The notes: generated by a model from the sequence alone, not told the origin. Positions 14,756 to 32,000 are shown, counted from the stretch's first letter. The stretch is DNA of 32,000 nt from Pseudoalteromonas translucida KMM 520 (GCF_001465295.1 NZ_CP011034.1:1320001-1352000); one strand, 5' to 3'. Numbers and translations: made by a program.

Positions 14756-17686
14756 ATGACAGCAAGCGCAGGCGCGTGGTATCGCGTAGGTACGGTAAAC
14801 GTAACTAAAAACAATCAAATAGTAACCGGTGTAGCAACTAACTGGCAAAACGATGTTATTGCTATTGCGGTAGGTGATATTTTTACCCTAGATGCAAAGA
14901 CCTGGTATGAAGTAACTGCGGTGGCAAGTGATACCAGCATTACGCTTGATCGCGGCTTTGAAGGTGCCACAGGTACGGGTAAAGCTTACGCCATTGTGCG
15001 CAATACGTCCGGCACGATATTAACGCGCATTGCGGGCCAGGTATCAGTACAGTTCAATCAAAAGCAATTGTTTTTAGATGAGCTGCGTACCTGGTTAAAC
15101 TCTAACAGCGCCAGCGAAACACTAACCGATAGTCACGGCATTACGCAGTCGCTTAAAACACCATCGCAGATGGTGCGTGACCATGACAACCGCTTGGCTG
15201 AGTTAGATGAAATTCACCCATTCCCTTGGGCTATGCGTAAAGTAGAGTTTGAAGCTAGACGTGCTGTGAATAACGAAATGTTTGCAGCCAGTGGGTTCGT
15301 GTATTTTGGTAAGCAAACCACGCTCTCTGAAAACGTAGGGGAAGGTTTATCCTCCGTGGAAAGTCAGCATTGGGTTAATCAATTTCGTTTAGGGGTAAGC
15401 CCTGTAAGTAATAATATCTTTGGCAAGTCCGTGACCCATTTCCCGAAACTCAATATTGGTGGAGTGGTTACTAACTTAAGACAGATAGGCAGGGCGGCCC
15501 ATGAAACTGATAATAACAGTGTGCGGCTACCTCCGGCGGAAGATGGTACGCGTACATACGATAGCGCCACAGGATTATCGGTAACTCACGCAACCCCCGA
15601 AATAGCTTTTGCTAGTGAAACAGCAACTAATAAAGTGGTTACGGACCGTGTAGATATGTGGGGGTTTGAAGCGTACTTGCGTGAAGTGAAGGATGATGAC
15701 CCGTTTGTCTATGCTAATGGCTTGATCCAATCCCTAGCGGGGGATATTAATGGGGTGGCAACCTTTGTTGATACTTCGCGGCCCGAAACATACTTTTCAT
15801 GGTTCGAGGGCGACGCCCCGATACGTGGGCGGGGGGTTAACTGGCAAACAGCAAGTGAAGCTAATCGCATTAAAATAGCTAGCGACCCCGCAAACAATAT
15901 TTATTTTGATGATGCGACAGGTAAATTTTATCAATGGTGTGTCCGTGGTCGCAGCTTTGCGGGTGCGGGTAATGGTGACTGGCGAACTTCTAGACCGCAA
16001 AAGGCAGACACATTAGGATTCGCACAGCACCTAGCAACTACAGTGCAAATCCAAGGATCGCGTGGCGCGTTGGAGCCTCCGGCATGGGCAACAACGTACG
16101 TAGGCCGAGAACATACATCAAACAAAAATCCCTTTTTAGGGGTTTTTACCAATGTTAATCACGGCATTCCAGAGGATAACTACTTCCTAGTGTGCGGCTC
16201 TGTGAATAGGCTTAACCAAGGAGCGTACCATCCTAGCTTTAACCCCTCAGGAACGGCTAAGTGGGGGGGCGGCACCTTAGATGAGTATAACCTAGCTTAT
16301 CGCTATGACTGGAGGGAAATCGGCAGTTTACCGTCTCTAGGCATGGTGGCGACGACTAGACAGCAGGCTTTCACCTTGAAATCTACCGCCCAACAGGGCT
16401 CCGGTAGTATAGGGAGTGAACCCGCCCGCCCAGATGGCCGAAACCATGACACTATTTACGCCAGCGGTCACGGTGGCCTTTGTCGTGATATGCGCTACTC
16501 AGCTTGGGGATTAACTCAAGAAGATTTTGTTGAAGCTGATTTGAATGTTAAGTCCGGTAAGTATCGCGGGCGTGAAAATCTGGCCCGCACTAAAGTAGAT
16601 AAATTGGAAGTGATTAGTGATGGCTTTTCGGGTGCCGTACCTAATTACCTGTACCAAGACAGTAGGCTTAGAAATATTGGTGTTAATATGGCTTCGGGTG
16701 AGACGCTGGATTACTACCTAGTTAACAGTGCAACTAAAGAAGTTATCCATAGTGACGACATACCCCCAGCGGCGCATGACGTAAGCCGCTCTAAATCAAT
16801 ATACTACCCCGCAGCTTGGGGCGATACCCCTACTATTTATGTCATTCATCGAACGCCCGAAGCGAGCTCAATCGCGGGTGAGTTCAGTCACGCTGAAGTT
16901 ATAGGTACGCCTTCAAATATTCTACTTTGTAAGGATTTGAAAAGCGGATGGCTTGGCAGTTGGCACCCTATTTTGCCCGACGGAGTGAGTCAGCCTCGGA
17001 AGCTATCCAGAAAAGCTAAGGACGTCACGAAAGTATACAGAACTACGGATTTAGGAGTTACCTGGACGGGCCATACTATTAGTAGCTTAGCCGTCTTTTC
17101 AGAGAGAGAGAATACGGTTAGCTTTCCGAGTCTATCCGCCGACTATATCCTTATGCTTATGTACACTACTAAGGCAAGGATGACCGAAGGAGCTAGTAAT
17201 AGCCCCGTTTATGGTGGGGAAAAAGGGGTAGGGGTTGTTCACGCCACAGCCTTTACTCAGGGAGATAATAACTACCAAAGTTCATCCGATTTTTGTTATA
17301 GCTTGATTTCTAAAGTTACAGACCGATATACAGTCGCAGCGTACCCAGAAAATCAAAAGACCTTAAGCCTTAGTATCAATACGGATAAGAGATTAACCGA
17401 TGCCAAGGAAGCTATAACCACCCACACACCTATTAATTTATCTATTATCCCAGAAAATCCAGCAGTGAAGGCACTTAACTACAACGTACTTAATAATCAG
17501 CAAGGTTTTGTAAACTACGCGTACACCGAACTAAAAGCTGAAGCTTTGGGCGCGGGCGTAGGAGACGACAATCAGATACATATCGTAGATGGTAAATCAA
17601 CACGCCTAGACGACAACGGTGCAAAGGTTATTTACGGAACAGCACAAATCGTAGAACCATTAGGGTGGATAAAAAATGACAAGTAA
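14756..17686 (+). CDS. Tail fibre/tailspike-like structural protein (976 aa), apparently mosaic
   Basis: The N-terminus (AWYRVGTVNVTKNNQIVTGVATNWQNDV..GDIFTL....YEVTAVASDTSITLDRGFEG) resembles N-terminal anchor domains common in phage fibres. The remainder is beta-rich. Gly codon usage switches near nt 15290. A chaperone-like gene follows. Confidence 0.65.
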   Translation: MTASAGAWYRVGTVNVTKNNQIVTGVATNWQNDVIAIAVGDIFTLDAKTWYEVTAVASDTSITLDRGFEGATGTGKAYAIVRNTSGTILTRIAGQVSVQFNQKQLFLDELRTWLNSNSASETLTDSHGITQSLKTPSQMVRDHDNRLAELDEIHPFPWAMRKVEFEARRAVNNEMFAASGFVYFGKQTTLSENVGEGLSSVESQHWVNQFRLGVSPVSNNIFGKSVTHFPKLNIGGVVTNLRQIGRAAHETDNNSVRLPPAEDGTRTYDSATGLSVTHATPEIAFASETATNKVVTDRVDMWGFEAYLREVKDDDPFVYANGLIQSLAGDINGVATFVDTSRPETYFSWFEGDAPIRGRGVNWQTASEANRIKIASDPANNIYFDDATGKFYQWCVRGRSFAGAGNGDWRTSRPQKADTLGFAQHLATTVQIQGSRGALEPPAWATTYVGREHTSNKNPFLGVFTNVNHGIPEDNYFLVCGSVNRLNQGAYHPSFNPSGTAKWGGGTLDEYNLAYRYDWREIGSLPSLGMVATTRQQAFTLKSTAQQGSGSIGSEPARPDGRNHDTIYASGHGGLCRDMRYSAWGLTQEDFVEADLNVKSGKYRGRENLARTKVDKLEVISDGFSGAVPNYLYQDSRLRNIGVNMASGETLDYYLVNSATKEVIHSDDIPPAAHDVSRSKSIYYPAAWGDTPTIYVIHRTPEASSIAGEFSHAEVIGTPSNILLCKDLKSGWLGSWHPILPDGVSQPRKLSRKAKDVTKVYRTTDLGVTWTGHTISSLAVFSERENTVSFPSLSADYILMLMYTTKARMTEGASNSPVYGGEKGVGVVHATAFTQGDNNYQSSSDFCYSLISKVTDRYTVAAYPENQKTLSLSINTDKRLTDAKEAITTHTPINLSIIPENPAVKALNYNVLNNQQGFVNYAYTELKAEALGAGVGDDNQIHIVDGKSTRLDDNGAKVIYGTAQIVEPLGWIKNDK

Positions 17687-18314
17687 ACTAATTGAGTTCA
17701 TCGTATTAGATGAAGAGCAAGGCCCTGTTTTGACTGAGCAGGGTTTGCCCCAACTGCTACAGCGACCAGACACTAAAACTGAGCAAGATATTGAGCGATT
17801 AATTTCGCTCGGTAAACCTGTGGCAGTGATCAACGTGTTTGCGGGGCTAGTAAGCTTAGGCGAGCAGTGGGGTTGGGCGCAAGACTACTTTAACTACTTG
17901 GTTGAGCTTAACGAAGCAAACGAGTACAACGCTAACTTACCTGAGCCAATAGCAAACGAAGATGGCACAATAACCGAAGCAGAGCCTAAGCCCCTACCTA
18001 CTGAGCCATTGCGCCCCGAAGCTAGAACCGTTGAGCAAGTGCTAGCGCCGTATCAAAGAAAGCTATCTAAGATGGTGGGTATAGATATAAAAGGCGTTAA
18101 CGTATCGCTGAACGAAACCAACCAAAACGGGCTATCTGCTTTGAAGTCCGCCTTTGACTTGGCTACCGAATTTGATGCGCAAGGGCAATTTTTCCCTATT
18201 AAATTTAATGCTGAAACAGCGACCGGCGAGCAGGTTGTAGAGCTGGCAGATGAAGCAGAGTTTAAACAGTTTGGTTTGCAGTTTATCCTTGCTCGAAAAG
18301 CCTACTTTGAATAG
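17676..18314 (+). CDS. Tail fibre assembly/chaperone-like protein (C-terminus resembles DUF4376)
   Basis: Overlaps the fibre gene by 11 nt. The C-terminal GVNVSLNETNQNGLSALKSAF....FPIKFNA..GEQVVELADEAEFKQFGLQFILARKAYF fits my recollection of the DUF4376 pattern. Confidence 0.5.
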   Translation: MTSKLIEFIVLDEEQGPVLTEQGLPQLLQRPDTKTEQDIERLISLGKPVAVINVFAGLVSLGEQWGWAQDYFNYLVELNEANEYNANLPEPIANEDGTITEAEPKPLPTEPLRPEARTVEQVLAPYQRKLSKMVGIDIKGVNVSLNETNQNGLSALKSAFDLATEFDAQGQFFPIKFNAETATGEQVVELADEAEFKQFGLQFILARKAYFE

Positions 18315-18325
18315 GGGCAATTACA

Positions 18326-18652
18326 TTGACCGCACTTAAAACCCTTAGAACGTTAATAGGCTACATTTTATGTGGCCTTTTGTTTATATGGCCCTTTGTA
18401 ATTTTATCTGTATTTGCATTTGCAGGTAGCACTTGGGCTTTTAATAGTTTGTATAGCATAGACATTGCTATTTGCAGTATTTGTCATGGTACCAGGCTTG
18501 AGTCTATATCAGCGCGCAGCTTTAGGTTGTCGCACGATAAACGCTACCGGTACCAAATGCTTGTCATTGACTTTTTAGCGCGCCCTTTTGATGGGGATAA
18601 CCATTGCAAGCGCGCGCACAAATGGGAAAGCAAAGTAATCAAGCTCAGATAA
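18326..18652 (+). CDS. Small membrane protein with Cys/His cluster (TTG start), candidate moron
   Basis: GGGG at 18315-18318 precedes TTG 18326. It has an N-terminal TM (IGYILCGLLFIWPFVILSVFAFAG), then C50-x2-C53-H54 and H93-C94-x3-H98. It is more AT-rich than its neighbours. Confidence 0.5.
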   Translation: MTALKTLRTLIGYILCGLLFIWPFVILSVFAFAGSTWAFNSLYSIDIAICSICHGTRLESISARSFRLSHDKRYRYQMLVIDFLARPFDGDNHCKRAHKWESKVIKLR

Positions 18653-18702: not shown

Positions 18703-20313
18703 ATGCCTGCCATATCCGTTAAAACATTTGCCGGTGAACGGCCTAAAGTTGATCCGCGCTTGCTCCCTAACGAATCAGCCGCTAAAGCCTATGGCTGCCA
18801 CTTTGATAATGGCAACTTATCGCCACTCAAAAGCCCGTTACTGACTGGTATATCCGTTATTTCTAACGCGAAAACTATTTACAAGCACTTAAATGAGTAT
18901 TGGTTCTCATGGGATAAAGCGGTTAACGCGGTAGCAAGTCCGGTGGCTAACGATCCATGGCAACGGGTTTACTTTACCGGTGACGGGTACCCGAAGGTAA
19001 CGAACAACACTATTTTTAGTGGCGCTATCATGCCAGCTAATGATTACCGCCTGGGTATTCAGTCGCCAGAAGTGCCGATAATCGCCATTGTTAATGATGC
19101 GGCTACCGAGGAAGTTGATCCCAACGATGATGAAACGCGTTATTACACGCACACGTTTGTTACTGAGCAAGGCGAAGAAGGCCCGCCAGGTGAAGCGTCG
19201 CAGCGTATTGATATTAGATACCCCAATGAAGAAGGTACGCATGTAAAGCTATCGTTTTCACCGCCTAACGTGAACGCGTCGAACATCACGCACCGACGAA
19301 TATACCGAACGGCAACCGGCGGCGGCATAGCTGATTACTTGTTTGTTGCTGAAATTCCTATTTCACAAAACCTATTTGTTGACGATATATCTACCGACGA
19401 GCTGGGATCATCGCTTGATACTTACGACTATGAAATGCCAAACGAAAACATGATCGGCTTAACGTCGATGGCTAACGGTATCTTAGCTGGCTTTTTTGAT
19501 AGTACCGTTTGCTTTAGTGAGTCCTACTTACCATATGCCTGGCCTACCGGGTACCAACTAACAACCGAGCATAAAATAGTAACGTGTGCAGCACTTGGCA
19601 ATACGCTGGCGGTACTCACAGAGGGCTACCCGTATTTATTTAGTGGCATTAGCCCTGACTCAATGGCCGGGCAAAAGCTTGAATCTAACCAGTCATGCAC
19701 CAGCGCGCGATCGGCGGTTATTGTTAATGGCTCACTTATTTACGCAAGCCCCGATGGTTTAATAGGCCTTAACGGTGGTGGGCTATCCATGCTTACCGGG
19801 CAGATAATTACTCGCGAGCAGTGGCAGGAATATGAGCCAAGCACGATTGAGGCGTACCACCAGGAAGGGCGCTACCTGGCGTTTTACGGTGCCAATTTAG
19901 ATAAGGCATTTATATTTGACCCTACAGATGGCGATTTTAGGCATTTTACAGCGACAGCCAATTGTGGCTTTAACAGCCTGGTTGATGATGCGCTTTACAT
20001 TTGCCAAGGTAAAAACCTTAGCAAGTGGGAGGCTGGCCCCGCAGTTATGAGCTACGAGTGGAAGTCTAAGGCGTTTATAGCTAACGACCTAAGCTTTGCA
20101 TGTGCAATGGTAAAAGGCGTAGACACGGAGCTTGCAGGGCTGCGCATTTACGCCGACGAAGTGGAGGTATTACATTTAGCGCCAGGGCAAATACCTAAAT
20201 CAGCATTTAGACTGCCAAACACGCGCGGTAATTCATGGTCCTTTGAAGTTTACGGCAAGGGTACAATTCATAGCGTGTCGATTGCGACAACGATGCAAGA
20301 GGTAGCGGCTTAA
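18703..20313 (+). CDS. Tail structural protein (536 aa), unknown family
   Basis: A long beta-rich ORF whose stop is directly followed by the start of the giant fibre gene. Called from position. Confidence 0.65.
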   Translation: MPAISVKTFAGERPKVDPRLLPNESAAKAYGCHFDNGNLSPLKSPLLTGISVISNAKTIYKHLNEYWFSWDKAVNAVASPVANDPWQRVYFTGDGYPKVTNNTIFSGAIMPANDYRLGIQSPEVPIIAIVNDAATEEVDPNDDETRYYTHTFVTEQGEEGPPGEASQRIDIRYPNEEGTHVKLSFSPPNVNASNITHRRIYRTATGGGIADYLFVAEIPISQNLFVDDISTDELGSSLDTYDYEMPNENMIGLTSMANGILAGFFDSTVCFSESYLPYAWPTGYQLTTEHKIVTCAALGNTLAVLTEGYPYLFSGISPDSMAGQKLESNQSCTSARSAVIVNGSLIYASPDGLIGLNGGGLSMLTGQIITREQWQEYEPSTIEAYHQEGRYLAFYGANLDKAFIFDPTDGDFRHFTATANCGFNSLVDDALYICQGKNLSKWEAGPAVMSYEWKSKAFIANDLSFACAMVKGVDTELAGLRIYADEVEVLHLAPGQIPKSAFRLPNTRGNSWSFEVYGKGTIHSVSIATTMQEVAA

Positions 20314-23300
20314 ATGGCTAAGTTAACAAAAGGTGGCTTTTCGGGTATTGCTCGAAAGGCAAAGCAAAGCCAATCAGAAGGCGCGATCACAGAGAACATT
20401 GAAATATTAACCGGGCAACGTGGTAGTGGTGAAAACCGCGCGCTATTAGTTAAGGACCTGGTTAACTTAGATGATATGAAACGCAATGCGCTAATCAATA
20501 GCGCAAAGGGTGGCAACAATAGCGGTGGCTTACCCATTGTTGTAGGTGGTATTCAGCGCCCGCACGCACCAGTAAACCTTAGCGCTACCGGCGGCTTTAC
20601 GTTTATAGCACTAACCTGGGACCGCCCAACTTATCGAGGTCACGCTTACGCTGAAATTTGGCGCAGCGAAACAGACGCGTACAACACAGCTACGCTTATA
20701 GCTACCGAAGTGGCGGACGTATTTAGCGACTCAGTAAACATGGGTGCTGAATTTTACTATTGGGTTCGCTTTGTAAACGTTGCTGATATGAAAGGCCCTA
20801 CGCAGGGCGCAAAAGGTATCTATGCTAAAACTGTTGAGTCTGCGGCGTCTATACTTGATGAAATAGGCGGGAAAATTGAAGGCTCGCACCTGGGGGATTT
20901 CCTAACGTCTGAAATAGGGAAGATACCGGAAATAGATTTTACTTTAAACGAAGTGATCACGGTTGAGATACCGAAATTAAAAGTAGACGTTGATAGCTTT
21001 GGAGCCGACGCCGACCAACTGCGCATTGACGCTGACTCATTACGCGTTGATGTTGATAGTAACCTTGCAGCAATACCCCCGCTTAAGCTTGATGTTGATA
21101 AAATAAAGCTGACTGAAATACCAAAATTAAAGACTGACATTGATCAGCTAAATGTAGATGTTCCTGCATTAAGGGCGGACGTTGATAAAAACCTGGTAGA
21201 TATTCCAGCGTTAAGAATAGACGTTGATAAAAACCTGCTAGAAATACCGGACATTAAAAGCGATGTTAGTGCGATAAATGTTGAGATACCAGCTATTCGC
21301 CAGGACTTAATAGACTTAACTGGCGAATCAGCAGAAATCAAAGCTATTGCAGATACAGCAAAACAAAGAGTTGAATCGGTAGAAGCAAGCAGCGAAACTT
21401 TAGCTAGGCAGCTAATTGAAAGCGCGTCGGTAAATGATACCAATTGGCAAAGCAATACGACAAAGCTAATAGCGTTTGAATCGTCTTTAGAAAATGTGAA
21501 TGCCCGTATTGAGTCTGATTTTTTAACTAAAACAGAAGCAAACGAAGCGATAGCCGCCGCGTCACAAACCATACGCACTGAAATAGAAGAGTCGGGCTTA
21601 GCGCTATCTGGTGATATAGAGAGTACCTATTACACTAAAACAACTACAGATCAGGCAATTGCTCAAGCGACCCAGGATATAAAGGCGCAAATTGAAGATC
21701 CATTGGGTAGCAGTGTTGGCGCTCAACTTAAATCGCAGCATTACACTAAAGTCGATGCGGACAGCGCGATTAGCTTTTCAGCAGAGCAGCTAAAATCAGC
21801 AATAGAGAACCCGGCGGGTACCAGCCTGGGCGCATTAATAAACAACGACTATTACACAAGCATTGCTACAGATAGCGCCATTGCGGCTTATGGCTTGCAA
21901 CTAAAAAGCGATATTGAAAACCCGGAAGGCGATAGTATAGGGGCCTCACTTAAAACCGATTACTACACTAAAACCGATACGGATAGCGCAATAAGCCAGG
22001 CGACTACGCTATTAAGCTCAGAAATTACCGGCGCAACCGATCAGATAGATACAATAAATGCCACACTTACAAGCGATTATTATACAAGTGCGGAAGCGGA
22101 TCAGGCGGTATCAGCAGCGACGCAGCTTTTAAAATCTGAAATAGAAAACCCGTTAGGCTCAAGTGTTGGCGCAACTTTATTTAATAACTACTCGACTACC
22201 ACAACTACAAATGAGGCTATAAGCCAGGCGACGACTGAGCTTAAATCAACCTTGGATGGTGACATTGGCGCGATAAGTGCGGACCTGGGCAGCAATTACT
22301 ACACCATAGCCAGCACAGACAGCGCAATAAGCCAGGCGACACAGTTATTAAAATCAGCAATTGAGGACCCGCTAGGCACTAGCATTGGTGCGACTTTGGC
22401 TACTGAATATTCTACTACGGTAGATATAGACCAAGCTATTAGTGAAGCAACTACGCAGCTGAACTCGAACATTGATAGTGCCGAAGCAGATATTTACCAA
22501 AACGTATATACGAAAGTTGAGGCAGATACCGCCATATCAGGAAGTGTAACTGCGCTCAGATCTGAATTAAGCAAGGTTATCGAGGATGGCGACACCGCTT
22601 TATTCCAGGACTTTAGTGCGGACCTGCAAACTAACTACTACACAAAAACACAAGCGGACGGCGCGATAAGCTCGGCTACAACGGCTTTAAAATCAGCGCT
22701 TGATAGTGATATAGGTAATGTAACTACTGAGCTACAAGATAACTACCTTACAAAAGTAGGCACCAACTCAGCCATTAGCCAGGCTACGCAGCTTTTAAAA
22801 TCTGAGATTGAAGATCCAGAGGGCAACAGCCTGGGCGCTACGCTTTTTACCGACTACTCAACTAAGACAGAAGTTAACCTGGCAATTAGTGAAGCGACCA
22901 CACAGCTAAACACTAACCTAGATAACCTGCAGTCTGATGTATATAACAACTTTTACACCAAAACGGATGCGGATAGCAGCATAGCCGGTAGCGTTACCGC
23001 GCTTAGATCTGAGCTTATGCAGGTTATTGATGATGGCAATAGCGACGCCGTTCAATCCATCGAAGCCGACCTGCAAACTAACTACTACACCAATGTAGCA
23101 ACAGATAGCGCTATCAGTGAGGCGACAACCTTACTAAAGACAACTATTGAAGATCCGCAAGGGGATAGCCTGGGTGCTGAACTGTTTAATCGGTACTACA
23201 CCAAAACAGACACCGACGGCGCATTGGCTGAACTTAATACGCAGCTAAGGGCAGAGTACCAACCACTAAGCGAAGCGGTTATTGAAAACGCCCTTGCCAA

Positions 23301-26300
23301 TGATGAGGCAAACAACAAGCAGCTAAAATTTGCAGCAGAGATAATATCGCAACAGAAAACCTTTGTTGATGATCAGGGCGCGCTTGCTGAGTCTATTTTT
23401 GCGCTACGTTCTGAATTTGGCGACAGCCAGGCAGAGCTATATACCTTGAAAGAAACGTATGCTGGCAACGTGCTAGCAACTGCGAAGGAGTTTAACAAAC
23501 TAGAGTCAAGCATAGGCGACGTATCAGCAACGCTATTAAATAGCTATGACACATCGGCCACGACAACAGAAGCGATAGCTAATGCGGTTTTGGCCCTTAA
23601 ATCTGAAATAGAAGATCCTGCAGGGGATAGTGTAGCCGCCAACCTACAGGTGAACTACTACACCAAAACTGATACTGATAACGCACTAAGCGAGCTAACC
23701 ACGCAGTTAAACGCAAGCGTCACCGGTTTATCAGCTGAAATTTATGAAAACATTTATACTAAGGTCGATGCGGACAGCGCTATAAGCTCGGCTGTTACTG
23801 CGCTTCGCTCAGACGTTGATAGTGATATAGGCGAACTTAGTGCAGGAATAGAGCAAAACTACTACACCAAAACGGATGCGGACAGCGCAATAGCACAGGC
23901 TAACCAACTGCTAAAATCGGCTATTGAAGATCCGGAAGGTAGTAGCCTGGGCGCAACCTTGTTTAATGCTTACTACACAAGCACTCAAGCAGATAGCGCG
24001 ATAAGTGAGGCCACAACGGCCCTTAAATCTGTTTTAGATAGTGACATAGGTAGCGTTACTGCGGACTTGCAAAACAATCACTCTACTACAGCGCAAACAA
24101 ATCTCGCCATTTCAGAAGCGACCCAGCAGTTAAAAAGTGCTATTGAAGATCCCGCCGGCGACAGTTTAGCGGCGGATATTTACACTAACTTTTCAACCAA
24201 GGCTGATACAACTAGCGCCATTAGTGAAGCGACAACAGCGCTAAAATCTACACTCGATGGCGATATAGGTGCGGTTTCGTCCGACTTGCAGACTAACTAT
24301 TTAACTAGCACGCAAACAGATGAAGCCATTAGCCAAGCGAATACCTTATTAAAATCGACAATAGACGATGATATAAGCTCAGTAGCCGCAGACCTACAAA
24401 CTAACTACCTAACAAGCACGCAATCTAACCAGGCGATAAGCGAAGCTACTACAGCGCTTAAATCTGTTTTAGACGGCGATATAGGAAGTGTTGCGGCGGA
24501 CTTGCAGAACAACCACTCTACGACAGCAGAAACAAATTTAGCTATATCCCAGGCAACCCAGCAACTTAAAAGCGCAATCGAAGATCCTGCCGGAGATAGC
24601 TTAGCGGCAGATATTTACACCAATTTCTCAACCAAGACAGATACAACCAGCGCAATAAGCCAAGCAACTACGGCACTAAAATCTACACTTGATGGCGAAA
24701 TTGGCACAGTAGCATCGGATTTGCAGACTAACTACTACACGAAAACTAACACTGACAGCGCCATTAGCCAGGCGACTACGGCGTTAAAATCTACGCTGGA
24801 CGGCGATATAGGTGCGGTAGCCTCAGACTTACAGACTAATTATTTAACCAGCACGCAAACGGATCAGGCAATAAGCCAGGCAACCACAACATTAAAATCC
24901 ACACTGGATGGTGATATTGGCGAGGTGGCCGCAGATCTGCAAAACAACTATCGCACAGAGACAGATACCGATACGGCAATCAGCCAGGCAACAACTGTTT
25001 TAAAAAGTGAGATTGAAGATCCGGAAGGCAACAGCCTGGGCGCTACGTTATTTAATGACTTTCAAACTAAGGTGGATGCGGACAAATCAACGGCAACGAC
25101 TAACCAGCAACTTAGGGCAGAGTTTGAGCCAAGCGCACAAGCGGTAATTGAAAACGCATTAGCGAATGACCTGGGGCAAGGCAGAAGAGCGCTAGCCGAG
25201 GCTGATATAATCAACAAGCAAACTGTTTTTGCTAATGAGCAAGAAGCACTAGCCGAATCCATTACCCTGCTAAATACGTCGATTGACGAAAGTAACTCAA
25301 ACCTTTACCAGCTACAAAAGACTTTTGCCAGCAAGACGCAGGCAACCGCACAGGATTTATTAAAGCTCGATAGCAGTGTTGGCGATGTTAAGGCTGATTT
25401 AGTAAATAACTACTTCACTAGCGCAGACGTTAACGAGGCAATAGCCAGTGCAGATATGGCTTTGCGTGCTGCCATAAAAGGCGGCGACGATGAAGCTTTA
25501 GAGACTGTAACGGCAGAGCTACAAACCAATTATTATACAAAGGCATCGGCAGATAGCGCCATTGCAGAAGCGACGACGCAACTTAAAAGCGCCATTGAGG
25601 ACCCTAACGGATCAAGTGTTGGTGCTGATTTATACGTTAACTATTCAACAACTACTGAAACAGGCTTAGCTATAAGCTCAGCTGTTACCGGGCTAAAGTC
25701 TACAATTGATACTGATATTGGCAACTTAAGCGCTGGATTGTCGCAGAATTACTACACAAAAACCGATACAGATAGTGCAATAAGCCAGGCTACTACAGCT
25801 TTAAAGTCAACACTTGATGGCGATATTGGCGACTTGAATGCGGTTTTGCAGACGGACTATTACACTAAGGTAGCCACGGATAGCGCGATTAGCTCAGCAG
25901 TAACCACCTTAAAGTCTACGCTGGATAGTGATATAGGAAGTTTGGGCGCAGTATTGCAGGCAAACTACTACACTAAAACAGCGGCGGATAGTGCGCTTAG
26001 CTCAGCAGTAACTAATCTAGGCTCTAAAATTGACACTGATATAGGCGTTGTTAATTCAGGGCTGCAAACAAATTACTACACTAAAACAGCAACAGATAGC
26101 GCCATTAGCTCAGCAGTAACTACGCTTGAATCAAGTGTGGGTGATGATATTGGCGACTTAAGCGCGGTACTACAGGCCAACTACTACACGAAAACAAACA
26201 CTGACGGCGCAATTAGTAGCGCCAGCCAGGTGCTAAAAGCCGCTATTGAGGACAAAAACGGTAACAGTGTGGGTGCCAGCCTGCAAACACTTGGCGAAAC

Positions 26301-27462
26301 CGTGGCAACAAATGACGGTAAATTCTCTTCTTTGTGGGGCGTAAAGACCAGCGTTAACGGCTTGCAGTCGAGTATTGGCCTAGTGAACGACGGCGTAGAG
26401 CCTATCTTTGCAGTTAAGGGCGCTAAGTTTGCGATTATAACGGATCAAGATCCTACTAACTTAACACCGGTATTTGCAGTTTCAAGCGGTAAAACGGTAA
26501 TTAACACGGCGATAATTGACCAGGCATTTATAAAAAGCCTGGTTACAGATGATTTATTATCTAATCGTATACTGGTTGGCTCCCGCTTTACGTCGCCGTC
26601 TATCAACTACAATCCCGCCAATGGCGCAAGGAGCAATAACTTTTCAATTGACCCTGGCGGCAACATGCTTGCTAAGAGCGCGACGCTTGAGTCGGTAACT
26701 ATTAAAGACAGTTACGGCAATGTTGTTATGTCGTCTACCGGTGCCATACCTTCATCAAAAGTAACTGGCCTGGGGGCTTTAGCCGCTAAAAGCTCACTGT
26801 CTTATAATGAGGTAACAGGCACGCCCGCGCTTGGCTCATTGGCTTACTTAAACTCGCTCGCTTACAACAGCATAACCGGCAAGCCGTCACTAGGTCCTTT
26901 TGCTGGACTTAGTAAAATATTGAGTTCAAACGTTACAACCTATATAGCCAACGGCGCTATTGGTAGTGCGCAAATAGATACGGCGTATATCAACTCGTTG
27001 TTTGGTCAAAACGCGAGCTTTTATGGCACCGTGTATGCGAACAATATTGAGGGCGATGTAACTGATATAAAGTCAAAATCAACATCGTTTGTAACAACCT
27101 CATCTTCGGCGGAGCTAACAGTGGTAACATTTACAGTGTCGGCACTTCCTTTTACAAGAAACGTGATGATTTGCGGGGTGGAAACGACAGGCTCAGGAGC
27201 TAGCGGATCGGCTCCCAACGTTGAAGTGCTTCTATATGTTTCCGGCTACTCAGGGGCGCGAGACAAATATCTTTGTTCTCATTCAAGTACAGGATCTAGC
27301 GTGGCAATATCAATGCCACTAGTTGCAACCATACCCGCCAATAGCACCAGGACAGTAACAGTTAAGATTAGGAAGGTGGGCGGCAGCAGTTCAAGCACTG
27401 CGACTGCGCGAGCGCAGAATGTGGTGTGCCAAGTATTCAAGTCGGGTTCTACAATTTCATAA
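20314..27462 (+). CDS. Giant host-specificity/tail fibre protein (2382 aa): FN3 domain, tandem-repeat shaft, lambda-J-like C-terminal region
   Basis: FN3-like APVNLSATGGFTFIALTWDRP...AEIWRS...EFYYWVRFVNV. There are about 39 repeats of ~36 aa. The C-terminus (LWGVKTSVNGLQSSIGLVNDG...FAII...TPVFAV..GKTVINTAIIDQAFIKSL...GTVYANNIEGDV) parallels lambda J (WGMKLEQT...IAFID...[21 protein letters not shown]...GTLRAEKIVGDI), as recalled from memory. Confidence 0.85.
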   Translation: MAKLTKGGFSGIARKAKQSQSEGAITENIEILTGQRGSGENRALLVKDLVNLDDMKRNALINSAKGGNNSGGLPIVVGGIQRPHAPVNLSATGGFTFIALTWDRPTYRGHAYAEIWRSETDAYNTATLIATEVADVFSDSVNMGAEFYYWVRFVNVADMKGPTQGAKGIYAKTVESAASILDEIGGKIEGSHLGDFLTSEIGKIPEIDFTLNEVITVEIPKLKVDVDSFGADADQLRIDADSLRVDVDSNLAAIPPLKLDVDKIKLTEIPKLKTDIDQLNVDVPALRADVDKNLVDIPALRIDVDKNLLEIPDIKSDVSAINVEIPAIRQDLIDLTGESAEIKAIADTAKQRVESVEASSETLARQLIESASVNDTNWQSNTTKLIAFESSLENVNARIESDFLTKTEANEAIAAASQTIRTEIEESGLALSGDIESTYYTKTTTDQAIAQATQDIKAQIEDPLGSSVGAQLKSQHYTKVDADSAISFSAEQLKSAIENPAGTSLGALINNDYYTSIATDSAIAAYGLQLKSDIENPEGDSIGASLKTDYYTKTDTDSAISQATTLLSSEITGATDQIDTINATLTSDYYTSAEADQAVSAATQLLKSEIENPLGSSVGATLFNNYSTTTTTNEAISQATTELKSTLDGDIGAISADLGSNYYTIASTDSAISQATQLLKSAIEDPLGTSIGATLATEYSTTVDIDQAISEATTQLNSNIDSAEADIYQNVYTKVEADTAISGSVTALRSELSKVIEDGDTALFQDFSADLQTNYYTKTQADGAISSATTALKSALDSDIGNVTTELQDNYLTKVGTNSAISQATQLLKSEIEDPEGNSLGATLFTDYSTKTEVNLAISEATTQLNTNLDNLQSDVYNNFYTKTDADSSIAGSVTALRSELMQVIDDGNSDAVQSIEADLQTNYYTNVATDSAISEATTLLKTTIEDPQGDSLGAELFNRYYTKTDTDGALAELNTQLRAEYQPLSEAVIENALANDEANNKQLKFAAEIISQQKTFVDDQGALAESIFALRSEFGDSQAELYTLKETYAGNVLATAKEFNKLESSIGDVSATLLNSYDTSATTTEAIANAVLALKSEIEDPAGDSVAANLQVNYYTKTDTDNALSELTTQLNASVTGLSAEIYENIYTKVDADSAISSAVTALRSDVDSDIGELSAGIEQNYYTKTDADSAIAQANQLLKSAIEDPEGSSLGATLFNAYYTSTQADSAISEATTALKSVLDSDIGSVTADLQNNHSTTAQTNLAISEATQQLKSAIEDPAGDSLAADIYTNFSTKADTTSAISEATTALKSTLDGDIGAVSSDLQTNYLTSTQTDEAISQANTLLKSTIDDDISSVAADLQTNYLTSTQSNQAISEATTALKSVLDGDIGSVAADLQNNHSTTAETNLAISQATQQLKSAIEDPAGDSLAADIYTNFSTKTDTTSAISQATTALKSTLDGEIGTVASDLQTNYYTKTNTDSAISQATTALKSTLDGDIGAVASDLQTNYLTSTQTDQAISQATTTLKSTLDGDIGEVAADLQNNYRTETDTDTAISQATTVLKSEIEDPEGNSLGATLFNDFQTKVDADKSTATTNQQLRAEFEPSAQAVIENALANDLGQGRRALAEADIINKQTVFANEQEALAESITLLNTSIDESNSNLYQLQKTFASKTQATAQDLLKLDSSVGDVKADLVNNYFTSADVNEAIASADMALRAAIKGGDDEALETVTAELQTNYYTKASADSAIAEATTQLKSAIEDPNGSSVGADLYVNYSTTTETGLAISSAVTGLKSTIDTDIGNLSAGLSQNYYTKTDTDSAISQATTALKSTLDGDIGDLNAVLQTDYYTKVATDSAISSAVTTLKSTLDSDIGSLGAVLQANYYTKTAADSALSSAVTNLGSKIDTDIGVVNSGLQTNYYTKTATDSAISSAVTTLESSVGDDIGDLSAVLQANYYTKTNTDGAISSASQVLKAAIEDKNGNSVGASLQTLGETVATNDGKFSSLWGVKTSVNGLQSSIGLVNDGVEPIFAVKGAKFAIITDQDPTNLTPVFAVSSGKTVINTAIIDQAFIKSLVTDDLLSNRILVGSRFTSPSINYNPANGARSNNFSIDPGGNMLAKSATLESVTIKDSYGNVVMSSTGAIPSSKVTGLGALAAKSSLSYNEVTGTPALGSLAYLNSLAYNSITGKPSLGPFAGLSKILSSNVTTYIANGAIGSAQIDTAYINSLFGQNASFYGTVYANNIEGDVTDIKSKSTSFVTTSSSAELTVVTFTVSALPFTRNVMICGVETTGSGASGSAPNVEVLLYVSGYSGARDKYLCSHSSTGSSVAISMPLVATIPANSTRTVTVKIRKVGGSSSSTATARAQNVVCQVFKSGSTIS
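20920..21315 (+). repeat. Short-period coding repeats (I/V)P-x-(L/I)-(K/R)-x-D-(V/I)-D
   Basis: Eight copies seen in the translation: IPEIDF, IPKLKVDVD, IPPLKLDVD, IPKLKTDID, VPALRADVD, IPALRIDVD, IPDIKSDVS, IPAIRQDLI. Related QLRIDAD and SLRVDVD segments also occur. Confidence 0.7.
21517..26290 (+). repeat. Coding tandem-repeat array, about 39 units of 32-44 aa (mode 36-37)
   Basis: Manual segmentation of the translation. The unit consensus is YYTKTDTDSAISQATTALKS followed by either IEDPxGxSxGAxLxxN or LDGDIGxxxxDLQTN. Two ~100-aa non-repeat modules break the array into three blocks. Confidence 0.85.
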
Positions 27463-30529: not shown

Positions 30530-32000
30530 AATAGTAGATCCATTTACAAATAAAGAAATTGAGTTTGTTGATCCCTTTGCTGAGCCAGAAACTAAAAGTG
30601 GGATGGCGGCAGCATTTGGAGCGGGAGTTGATAAAGTTGAAGAGCTAGGTTACCGCGCAGTAAAGGGCTTTACTGACACAGGCGAAAACCCAGATGATCA
30701 CGAAGAGGGCTCGTTTTCTCAGTCGGTGGCAAAGGCAATTGGCAAAGGTGGCTCAGTTTCTAAATGGGCGCAAGAAGGCATCGATCGCAATGTTAAAGAG
30801 CAGGAGGCATACGAGCCAACCGTTAAATCATATAAAGATATTGATGGGTTTGGTGACGCAGCCAGCTATACCGGCGAATTGCTGGCTGGCTCGCTACCCT
30901 ACATGGCAGGCGCTGCTACTGGAATAGGCGCGCTTGGTATGGCTGGCGGTTTATCGCATGAGGCTTATGAAAAGCAGCCAGAAGGCGAAAAAGACGCGGC
31001 AAGAGCTGTTACATCGGGTGCCGCTCAAATGCTACTTGAGCGTTTAGGTATCAAGGTAAGCATGGGCCAACTTGGCAAAGATATTTTAAAAGATGGTGTG
31101 GTAGAAACCGCTAAGCGCATGGGCAAGGGAGAGCTTGTAGATGCTGTACGCGATCCAAGTTTTGCTAAGCGCATATTCAAAGGCGCTGTAGGCGAAGGCT
31201 TAACCGAGACAGGTCAAGAGGCACTAGCGCAATGGGGCGCAGGTAAAAGCATTGATGAATTTGAAGGGCTAGACGAAGCATTTGTAGGTGGTTTTGCGGT
31301 CGGTGGCGTAATGCGTACTGGCTCAGAGTCAGCGCAAAAGGTAATGGGATACCAGAAAAAAACAGCCGAAGCGGTAAAGCAAGGTGTAGATCAACTTGTT
31401 GAGGCAGGCGCAAGCCACGGTGAGGCAATTGATACTGTACGTAAACAGCAATATGACGCCGCTAAAAAGCAGGGGCTAAGTGAAGCAGAGGCGTCCGCAG
31501 TTGTTGCGCGCACCATGAAAGAAAAATTTGGCATTGACGATCCTTTGTTTGCAGCAGCAGCGGAGCCAGTGGCGGTGGAGTCGGTAGAAGCGGGCATGGA
31601 GCCAACCATACCCGAAGATACGCAAACACCTATTTTTCAAAATGATGAAGTGGATTTCGATGCGCCAACAGCAGCTAGACAGGCGGGATTTGATCAAACA
31701 AATAAAGCGGCCGGCCAATATGGGGATATGCTTACAAGCCCTGCGCAACAGTCATTAAGCGCTTTAGATGCAGGCAACAATGCGCCCACAGTAGACGAGC
31801 GAGTAAAGGCGGCGGCCTTTGATAAATCACCAACACCAGAAGATCGTTTTAGCCCAATAAAGTACCAGCATGAAGGCGATTTATTGGGGCCAGAGGCGCA
31901 AGACGCGCAAAGCATAGACAATGCCCCTATTGATGGGCAAACAGTGCCAGAACAAGGTAAGTTACCAACGGCAGAGCAAACACAAAGCCGGCAAATGCGT
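30519..32000 (+). CDS. Large putative internal virion/ejection protein, 5' part (at least 494 aa, continues past the window)
   Basis: My own translation from ATG 30519 (MTNKIVDPFTNKEIEFVDPFAEPETKSGMAAAFGAG...) is open through nt 32000, which is 494 codons. It is missing from the track because there is no stop in the window. AAGGG lies 10 nt upstream. It contains a Gly/Ala-rich hydrophobic segment (LLAGSLPYMAGAATGIGALGMAGGL). Confidence 0.75.
   Translation, partial: MTNKIVDPFTNKEIEFVDPFAEPETKSGMAAAFGAGVDKVEELGYRAVKGFTDTGENPDDHEEGSFSQSVAKAIGKGGSVSKWAQEGIDRNVKEQEAYEPTVKSYKDIDGFGDAASYTGELLAGSLPYMAGAATGIGALGMAGGLSHEAYEKQPEGEKDAARAVTSGAAQMLLERLGIKVSMGQLGKDILKDGVVETAKRMGKGELVDAVRDPSFAKRIFKGAVGEGLTETGQEALAQWGAGKSIDEFEGLDEAFVGGFAVGGVMRTGSESAQKVMGYQKKTAEAVKQGVDQLVEAGASHGEAIDTVRKQQYDAAKKQGLSEAEASAVVARTMKEKFGIDDPLFAAAAEPVAVESVEAGMEPTIPEDTQTPIFQNDEVDFDAPTAARQAGFDQTNKAAGQYGDMLTSPAQQSLSALDAGNNAPTVDERVKAAAFDKSPTPEDRFSPIKYQHEGDLLGPEAQDAQSIDNAPIDGQTVPEQGKLPTAEQTQSRQMR

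Follow-up and report, generated by a model that had tools for sequence, protein, structure and literature searches.

A candidate podoviral tail-tip fibre with a 39-unit repeat shaft in Pseudoalteromonas translucida KMM 520

The 32,000-nucleotide (nt) stretch of the Pseudoalteromonas translucida KMM 520 genome examined here (GCF_001465295.1, NZ_CP011034.1:1320001-1352000; "the window", from whose first letter all positions are counted) encodes a 2382-residue fibre protein, the shaft of which is made of 39 copies of a unit mostly 36 or 37 residues long. Probably this protein forms the fibre at the tail tip of a short-tailed phage or prophage of the F116/933W type, hosted by a marine gammaproteobacterium, and has a segmented, mainly helical repeat shaft. 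Relative to characterised systems, its novelty lies in a shaft of this 36/37-aa unit expanded to ~1,600 residues; the J-like podoviral tip fibre type is itself known. In the literature searched on the phage group and on the repeat, the unit is nowhere described.

The fibre open reading frame (ORF) extends over 7149 nt, with the frame open throughout. Family phrog_37064 ("tail fiber protein") matches its product at E 7e-286, and the gene is syntenic with those for the douglas 12A4 tail fibre, the phiARM81mr tail tip fiber, and Stx2-86 gp26. An earlier first-pass annotation, made from the sequence alone, had taken the repeats for a fibre shaft; this is supported by the family match, as well as by two modules embedded among the repeats that are homologous to solved coiled-coil shafts (see below).

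The repeat array and its link to coiled-coil shafts

A hidden Markov model (HMM) of the repeat, seeded on four clear units and iterated over the fibre protein, returned 39 significant units (per-unit independent E-values of 4e-8 to 2e-20) covering 1591 residues (nt 21520-26292). The first-pass annotation had counted about 39 units at 21517-26290, i.e., within three bases of these limits, and the unit head that it described, (Y/F/H..)(Y/S/L..)T(K/S/T..)...(D/N).A(I/L), fits all 39. Its division of the array into consecutive short units with two tail types held only in part: 15 units of 36 aa do end in an "LDxDIG" tail (G type) and 14 units of 37 aa in an "EDPxGxS" tail (P type), but eight have variant tails (o; 32, 36, 39, 40 or 44 aa), while in two 117-aa units (J) the head is followed by a long module, both of these units carrying a conserved non-repeat insertion of ~80 aa. 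From N to C terminus, the units are ordered oPPPoPGPooGPooPJPoGPGPGGGPGGGPJoPGGGGGP.

Self-comparison of the protein gives the same period, with an identity at lag 36 of 0.255 against a background of 0.087 +/- 0.023 (maximum of 200 shuffles, 0.12). Lags of 145 and 149 expose higher-order blocks within the array, comprising a tandem duplication of four units (2 x 145 aa; 83% aa and 75% nt identity), which Tandem Repeats Finder (TRF) reports as a 435-nt period with 76% matches at 23998-24876, and a looser block of 149 aa. Between units with 72-83% protein identity, DNA identity is only 63-75%, the same codon is used at only 34-51% of identical residues between units, and the longest exact repeat anywhere in the 4.8-kb array is 23 nt. 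Judged by these values, the units are old at the DNA level, with their synonymous sites diverged and their protein pattern kept.

The long module (~120 aa) has the pattern "..QLRAE(F/Y)xP..AVIENALAND...LYQLQ...KLDSSVGDV.ADL.NNY" (in the first long unit, "..QLRAEYQP..AVIENALAND.."), and most array-bearing members of the family contain one to four full copies of it, with none in a few of the shortest. A profile of the module matches the J-like fibre of phage T1 (9l9p_S, residues 851-1018; E 3e-15), the J-like tail tip protein gp24 (23gd_D; E 1e-4), and the F2-pyocin central fibre (25vf_A, residues 967-1077; E 2e-4). By profile comparison, both long modules of the window fibre thus share homology with the three-stranded coiled coil that makes up the shaft in the central fibres of T1 and F-pyocins. 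Since the short unit's head and the module's start align (hhalign probability 95%, E 4e-8) and the end of the module resembles a unit tail, the short units look like the module minus its central ~80 residues. The likeness to the pyocin and T1 fibres (25vf, 9l9p) extends to the 117-aa modules with their AIENALAND motif and to a site between FN3 domains and a beta-prism; however, those shafts measure 160-250 aa and no 36/37-aa units make them up. Among pyocin/T1-type shafts, docking of side fibres and a switch of fold have been demonstrated.

An exhaustive HMMER search of 1.84 billion representative proteins with the unit profile returned only 216 proteins at E <= 0.001, and among the matches listed no protein exceeds 25 matched stretches. 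Among them is P0026 (1975 aa), a siphoviral J-like protein of full length in which ~18 of these units occupy the shaft position; the unit is thus a modular shaft element common to true J proteins and podoviral fibres. A further match, the unrelated giant fibre-like protein P0050 (2611 aa), has ~25 copies of a shorter "ANTQLKSYTDGAISS" motif that corresponds only to unit positions 7-29; fibres more widely may share the "T(D/x)xAIS.." core as a motif.

Relatives and change of shaft length

When the fibre gene and the head module were compared by megablast with 50,697 phage records, no match emerged, relatives being found at the protein level only. Two contig collections were searched with the non-repetitive N-terminal domain, yielding intact orthologous ORFs in L027 (an IMG/VR contig; 2565 aa, 39 units), L035 (a Paraglaciecola metagenome-assembled genome; 2442 aa, 36 units), and L036 (the isolate genome of Pseudoalteromonas shioyasakiensis JCM 18891; 2155 aa, 29 units). 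Unit counts by the repeat HMM range across the family from 0 (Stx2-86 gp26, phiARM81mr) through 6-29 to 36-39, with the window fibre, L027 and L035 the longest as sampled here. The phrog_37064 members douglas 12A4 VPAG_00067 and 1F273_PE002 gp55 belong to the same family and have the same unit (13-20 copies), but are shorter and known from annotation only.

When written as strings of unit types, the arrays share a common scaffold (o-PPP ... J ... J ... P) into which lineage-specific blocks are set; the runs of G units are the window's own expansions. Of the relatives, L027 and L035 stand closest (73% identity in aa and, across the module, 75-80% in nt), and the array differs from theirs by insertions or deletions (indels) of 36, 72, 73, 76, 108, 182, 217 and 218 aa, i.e., 1, 2, 3, 5 and 6 units. 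Two further indels lie outside the array: one of 14 aa, equal to one N-terminal "IPxLKxDVD" repeat, of which the window has one copy fewer than L027 and L035, and one of 40 aa, equal to two C-terminal 20-aa repeats. Tuning of length by gain and loss of units, which the first-pass annotation had raised as a possibility, is thus shown by the whole-unit indels between relatives in a family that runs from 0 to 39 units; on this comparison of sequences, the array lengthens and shortens by recombination in unit register.

Fold and possible working of the shaft

In three dimensions, the short units most likely form a segmented, mainly alpha-helical trimeric rod. [quoted passage not shown] The unit consensus is hydrophobic at positions 11, 14, 18, 22, 26, 29/30 and 33/34 and aromatic at positions 1-2, with hydrophobic harmonics of 4.0 (dominant) and 3.6 residues; Gly27 is almost invariant, Pro25 occurs in 14 units (the 37-aa type), and each unit has two turn-like segments. 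This hydrophobic pattern, together with Gly27 and Pro25, fits a mainly helical rod broken or kinked in each unit better than it does an unbroken heptad coiled coil. Sub-threshold Pfam matches are all to long helical families.

Several points weigh against such a rod. The sole model to cover the units is the low-scoring monomer just described, so that helicity leans on a weak prediction and on the homology of two of the 39 units; moreover, Gly27, the 14 Pro25 residues and the dominant 4.0-residue period are ill-suited to an uninterrupted canonical coiled coil. Profile searches of the PDB place the short unit in no solved structure, the single-unit profile retrieving only a chance match to GlmU, and a 290-aa stretch of units giving no match. 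Homologues that are ~5-fold shorter supply, by analogy, the trimeric state, the site of attachment, the receptor, and the placing of the protein in the virion.

Pfam matches of the whole protein to PurS, 4HBT, Nol11_C and Mt_ATP-synt_B were set aside as false positives inflated by the repeats, even though some exceed the gathering cut-off. The PurS match is triggered by the "LKSEIEDPxG" of the 37-aa units (e.g., aa 1094-1117; 29.1 bits versus a gathering cut-off of 22.2), and one source names the homologue P0007 "FGAM synthase PurS component/archaellum component FlaC", a false annotation driven by the repeat.

By analogy with its homologues, the fibre is presumed to be a homotrimer, the N terminus of which would dock on the nozzle or plug of the tail while its C-terminal TNF-like tip would bind a receptor on the host surface. 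Between these ends, the shaft consists of two canonical J-type three-stranded coiled-coil modules and 37 short units, each of the latter keeping the module head (YYTKxDxDxAISxA..LKS) and adding a short tail. The rod would be broken in each unit, both at the conserved Gly (and Pro) turn and at a polar NYYTKTD junction. Were all 1591 residues helical, the shaft would measure up to ~240 nm; were each unit to fold back, ~100 nm; as a beta-prism with ~11-residue strands, ~70 nm. The shaft would set the reach of the receptor-binding tip from the capsid and, as proposed for DEV gp56 and lambda J, would relay the signal of receptor binding to the tail plug such that the channel opens.

Short-tailed phages are thought to locate their hosts with short fibres or spikes near the capsid. 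Members of this family would instead bear a tip fibre with a stalk of possibly several capsid diameters, evolving in steps of ~36 residues. They would thus constitute a natural series, from 0 to 39 units, in which the effect of fibre length on adsorption and on host range among marine bacteria can be gauged. Through this family, moreover, podoviral J-like fibres (DEV gp56, Sp5 ORF71, SU10 gp16) are tied to the shafts, likewise coiled coils, of lambda-type central fibres, and the unit, as a defined modular rod element, may be of use for engineering fibre length.

Two other folds could be proposed for the same residues. Each unit might form a helix-turn-helix hairpin, with successive hairpins stacked as an alpha-solenoid (TPR-like) or as short helical bundles, which would make the shaft much shorter and stiffer. 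The near-invariant Gly27, frequent Pro25, two turn-like segments per unit, and strong 4.0-residue harmonic are all compatible with hairpins, and consensus TPR proteins are matched by a profile of several units (8bu0_A, E 7e-7). However, that E-value is inflated by repetition, and a TPR identity was ruled out when hhalign of the unit profile against consensus TPR gave a probability of 0.8%, with no Pfam TPR match at E <= 10 and none in the PDB with the single-unit profile. The units also hold few large hydrophobic residues for solenoid packing, the AF2 monomer runs a single helix through five G-type units, and the flanking modules are parallel three-stranded coiled coils; we thus consider a solenoid unlikely. 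Quite unlikely, though of larger consequence if true, is a repeat shaft that switches fold and so acts as a very large conformational spring. Here, a metastable coiled-coil shaft, i.e., a trimeric tether of ~0.2 micrometres, would refold to a beta-prism upon receptor binding, zipping from a seed in the tail-tip beta-prism and shortening several-fold (roughly 240 nm to 70 nm); this would reel the capsid to the cell and provide energy for tail opening, with the number of units setting both reach and stroke. In the F7 pyocin, receptor binding converts the central fibre's 163-residue coiled-coil shaft to a beta-prism, and this opens the tail tip; beta-prism strands just C-terminal to that shaft are proposed to act as the seed, and for many siphophage central fibres similar switches are predicted (PMC12874032). 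The long modules of the window fibre are homologous to the F-pyocin shaft region, the switching segment of F7, and a beta-rich tail-tip domain directly follows the shaft at the seed position, as in switching fibres. Ala, Ser and Thr abound in the units, and the published motif SxSxxMxxLxS occurs at fixed unit positions 24 times forward and 18 times reversed, versus 9.2 +/- 2.8 and 8.8 +/- 2.8 in shuffled sequences. That test is taken as weak evidence: it is biased by repetition, and hence anti-conservative, as a single consensus match is counted many times while shuffling destroys the repeat structure; moreover, the motif orientations within a unit lack the clean alternation needed for a beta-meander, homology to the pyocin shaft is limited to two of 39 units, and the switch has been demonstrated only for a 163-residue segment of a siphovirus-type tail.

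The array might also be an assembly artefact, in which collapsed or expanded repeats yield a falsely long ORF. Nothing speaks for this beyond the general risk attached to tandem repeats. The units are diverged (63-75% nt identity), no exact repeat is long enough to lead an assembler astray, the frame stays open over the full gene, and independent assemblies, one isolate genome included, hold intact ORFs of 29-39 units. Between the diverged units and these independent assemblies, an artefact is very unlikely indeed, far more so than either of the alternative folds.

Flanking domains, known fibres and gene neighbourhood

The features of the fibre gene and its neighbours are collected in Table 1.

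Table 1. Coordinates of the fibre gene, its parts, and neighbouring genes in the window
Feature	Coordinates	Strand	Residues	Basis
Side tail fibre, separate gene; counterpart of Sp5 ORF67	14756..17686	+	976 aa	N-terminal matches to several tail-fibre PHROGs; position as Stx2-86 gp21
Tubular tail B (nozzle) homologue	18703..20313	+		47.6% identical to douglas VPAG_00068; stop abuts fibre start at 20314
J-like tail-tip fibre gene, complete	20314..27462	+	2382 aa	ORF list and translation; phrog_37064; synteny
Conserved N-terminal segment, "ENIEILTGQRG..RALLV.DL"	20314..20559	+	aa 1-82	Conserved as far as the 422-aa Stx2-86 gp26 (alignment)
FN3-like domain	20560..20838	+	aa 83-175	N-terminal family profile versus lambda gpJ and DEV gp56
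Start of central straight fibre, "ILDEIGGKIEGSHLGDFL"; 14-aa repeats; helical stretch	20839..21519	+		Alignment; TRF; sequence reading
Repeat array (shaft), 39 units	21520..26292	+	aa 403-1993	Repeat HMM; unit typing; lag-36 self-identity
Long unit 1: unit head and J-type coiled-coil module	23194..23544	+	aa 961-1077	Module profile; hhalign
Tandem four-unit block duplication	23971..24840	+	aa 1220-1364 and 1365-1509	TRF; identity
Long unit 2: second J-type coiled-coil module	25060..25410	+	aa 1583-1699	Module profile; hhalign
Phage_Tail_Tip / DUF1983 domain	26293..26703	+	aa 1994-2130	PF09327; SU10 gp16; beta strands in low-confidence AF2 model
Linker with ~20-aa "SL.Y..(V/I)TGKP.LG" repeats and invariant "GPFAGLSKILSSNV.TYIANGAIGSAQI" segment	26704..27060	+	aa 2131-2249	Alignment
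C-terminal all-beta TNF/C1q-like jelly-roll domain	27061..27459	+	aa 2250-2382	AF2 and Foldseek
Large ORF, start only (leaves the window)	30603..32000	+	at least 466 aa	Open frame; synteny with Stx2-86 gp35, douglas VPAG_00062 and PE002 giant genes

Ahead of the array, the FN3 domain called by the first-pass annotation was recovered by a profile built from the family alignment of the first ~210 aa, while the Pfam fn3 model gave no score on the fibre protein. The profile aligns to lambda gpJ 708-841 (8iyk_J, E 4.3e-5), i.e., to the FNIII domain preceding the central straight fibre plus the first residues of that fibre, and aligns better still to gp56 of the N4-like podovirus DEV (PDB 9ze4 chain N, 9ze4_N; E 1.8e-10). 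The lambda central straight fibre comprises residues 808-998 (PMC13455828), and in the alignment to lambda gpJ 806-841 the straight-fibre start "ILDEIGGKIEGSHLGDFL" of the window protein is comparable to lambda "LDFFKGKITESHLGKEL". The conserved segment at the extreme N terminus is presumed to dock to the tail nozzle or plug, by analogy with SU10 gp16, the trimers of which dock onto the nozzle protein (PMC9509320), and with DEV gp56, which as a homotrimeric fibre closes off the tail plug and bears LptD-binding subunits (PMC12892993). A second in-frame repeat of ~14 aa, "(E/D)IPxLKxDVDxxL", is present upstream of the main array in ~8 copies (20956-21303; aa ~215-330), and in this region TRF detects a 42-nt period at 21154-21257.

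Behind the array, the lambda-J-like C-terminal region that had been proposed is supported for both of its domains. PF09327 (Phage_Tail_Tip, formerly DUF1983) matches directly after the array at aa 1995-2078 (E 4.8e-10; 39.8 bits versus a cut-off of 22), and the SU10 short tail fibre gp16 (7z4b) aligns at the tail-tip region with E 6e-5; this domain is the beta-rich core of the central straight fibre. AF2 predicts an all-beta domain for the last ~130 aa (pLDDT ~90 over model residues 77-206), and Foldseek returns as their top PDB match the lambda gpJ-LamB complex (8xcj/8xck; 8xcj_F, 8xck_F; E ~1e-5), albeit at a TM score of only 0.38-0.43, followed by the TNF/C1q-like trimeric lectins BC2L-C and PLTL (TMt ~0.7 for TNF-like lectins). 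From a viral library, the matches are Vibrio and Pseudoalteromonas phage proteins named "Tip attachment protein J central straight fiber". This domain is presumed to bind the receptor. Homologues share an invariant "GPFAGLSKILSSNV.TYIANGAIGSAQI...GDV", after which they diverge into at least three distinct terminal cassettes; a conserved segment followed by diverging terminal cassettes is the usual pattern of receptor-binding tips. Among otherwise near-alike fibres (that of the window, P0004, P0007-P0010, P0013), the last ~130 aa are swapped as cassettes, with endings such as "..FKDGSTIS", "..FKKASSLS" and "..FKKGSSLG", the exchange point following an invariant "GTVYA.N..GD(V/I).D" boundary; as read from these alignments, the exchange suggests host-range switching by tip swapping. 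Between the tail-tip and C-terminal domains lies a third repeat of ~20 aa, "SL.Y.E(V/I)TGKP.LG" (26776-26913; aa ~2155-2200), the copy number of which varies: the 40-aa insertion in L027 and L035 amounts to about two more copies, P0011 has more, and in P0005, P0006, P0015 and P0016 the repeat region is replaced by an inserted domain of ~130-250 aa.

The window fibre thus has an FN3-like domain, an "LD..GKI.ESHLG" straight-fibre start, a Phage_Tail_Tip/DUF1983 domain, and a C-terminal beta receptor-binding domain in the same order as lambda gpJ (PDB 8iyk, 8xcj/8xck). Unlike gpJ, however, it is without the hub domains that build the cone of the tail tip (J residues ~1-700): the Phage-tail_3 / HDII-HDIV region finds no Pfam or PDB match, and only ~80 aa stand ahead of the FN3-like domain. 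Its gene is a separate one in a podovirus (tailless-tube) setting with no tape measure or gpL/K/I module, and its shaft of ~1,600 aa compares with a lambda straight fibre of ~190 aa. Going by domain order, the window fibre is the distal half of a J protein encoded as its own gene. DEV gp56 (9ze4), SU10 gp16 (7z4b) and ORF71 of the Sp5/933W group (Stx2-86 gp26) are its true orthologues, with homology over the N-terminal/FN3 and tail-tip regions (tblastn to Stx2-86 gp26) and, in the Stx phage, a gene likewise located beside the nozzle gene. These podoviral fibres, in contrast, are 322-429 aa long, with a short coiled coil at most and no 36-aa units, and DEV gp56 carries separate receptor-binding subunits (gp54, gp55) where the window fibre ends in its own TNF-like domain. 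Stx2-86 gp26 (422 aa) is the same protein without units, and matches DEV gp56 over its full length (E 1e-14); Sp5 ORF71 (DUF1983/COG4733) is essential for tail formation (PMC5155283).

Genes in the window run in the order terS, terL, portal, major capsid, several virion proteins, the 976-aa side fibre, a 536-aa protein, the fibre gene, four small genes, and a large ORF, which is the order, gene for gene, of Stx2-converting phage 86 (Stx2-86), Vibrio phage douglas 12A4, Vibrio phage 1F273_PE002 and Aeromonas phage phiARM81mr. Hardies et al. placed douglas 12A4 and VT2-Sakai (Sp5) in the "F116" podovirus tail group, and identified the gene just upstream of the fibre as a homologue of tubular tail B (nozzle) and the giant gene as a homologue of IVP-D (PMC4819975). 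The nozzle-then-fibre order is the same in four relatives. For the product of 18703-20313, phrog_511 gives the label "internal virion protein", which conflicts with the nozzle identification of its douglas 12A4 orthologue, VPAG_00068, in PMC4819975. The side fibre probably supplies the other receptor contact, by analogy with ORF67 in Sp5. On synteny, the ORF at 30603 corresponds to the giant virion protein, IVP-D-like or with LPD5/methyltransferase domains and ~2800-3700 aa long, of Sp5 (ORF80), Stx2-86, douglas 12A4 and PE002. The first-pass annotation had also remarked on a J-type fibre in a gene set lacking a tape measure. That combination is indeed present, but it is no odd mixture: the absence is explained by the F116/933W-type podoviral gene set, as no tape measure is expected in such phages, and a J-type fibre without one is the normal layout there and in N4-like podoviruses, which makes this point less new than the annotation suggested.

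No tRNA genes were found in the window. At 17676-18652, it holds two ORFs (212 and 108 aa) without a reverse transcriptase or Avd homologue. In the relatives PE002 and phiARM81mr, a diversity-generating retroelement (Avd plus reverse transcriptase) lies between the side-fibre and nozzle genes, the cassette coordinates in relatives being 5029-6680 in L002 and 2200-3833 in L003.

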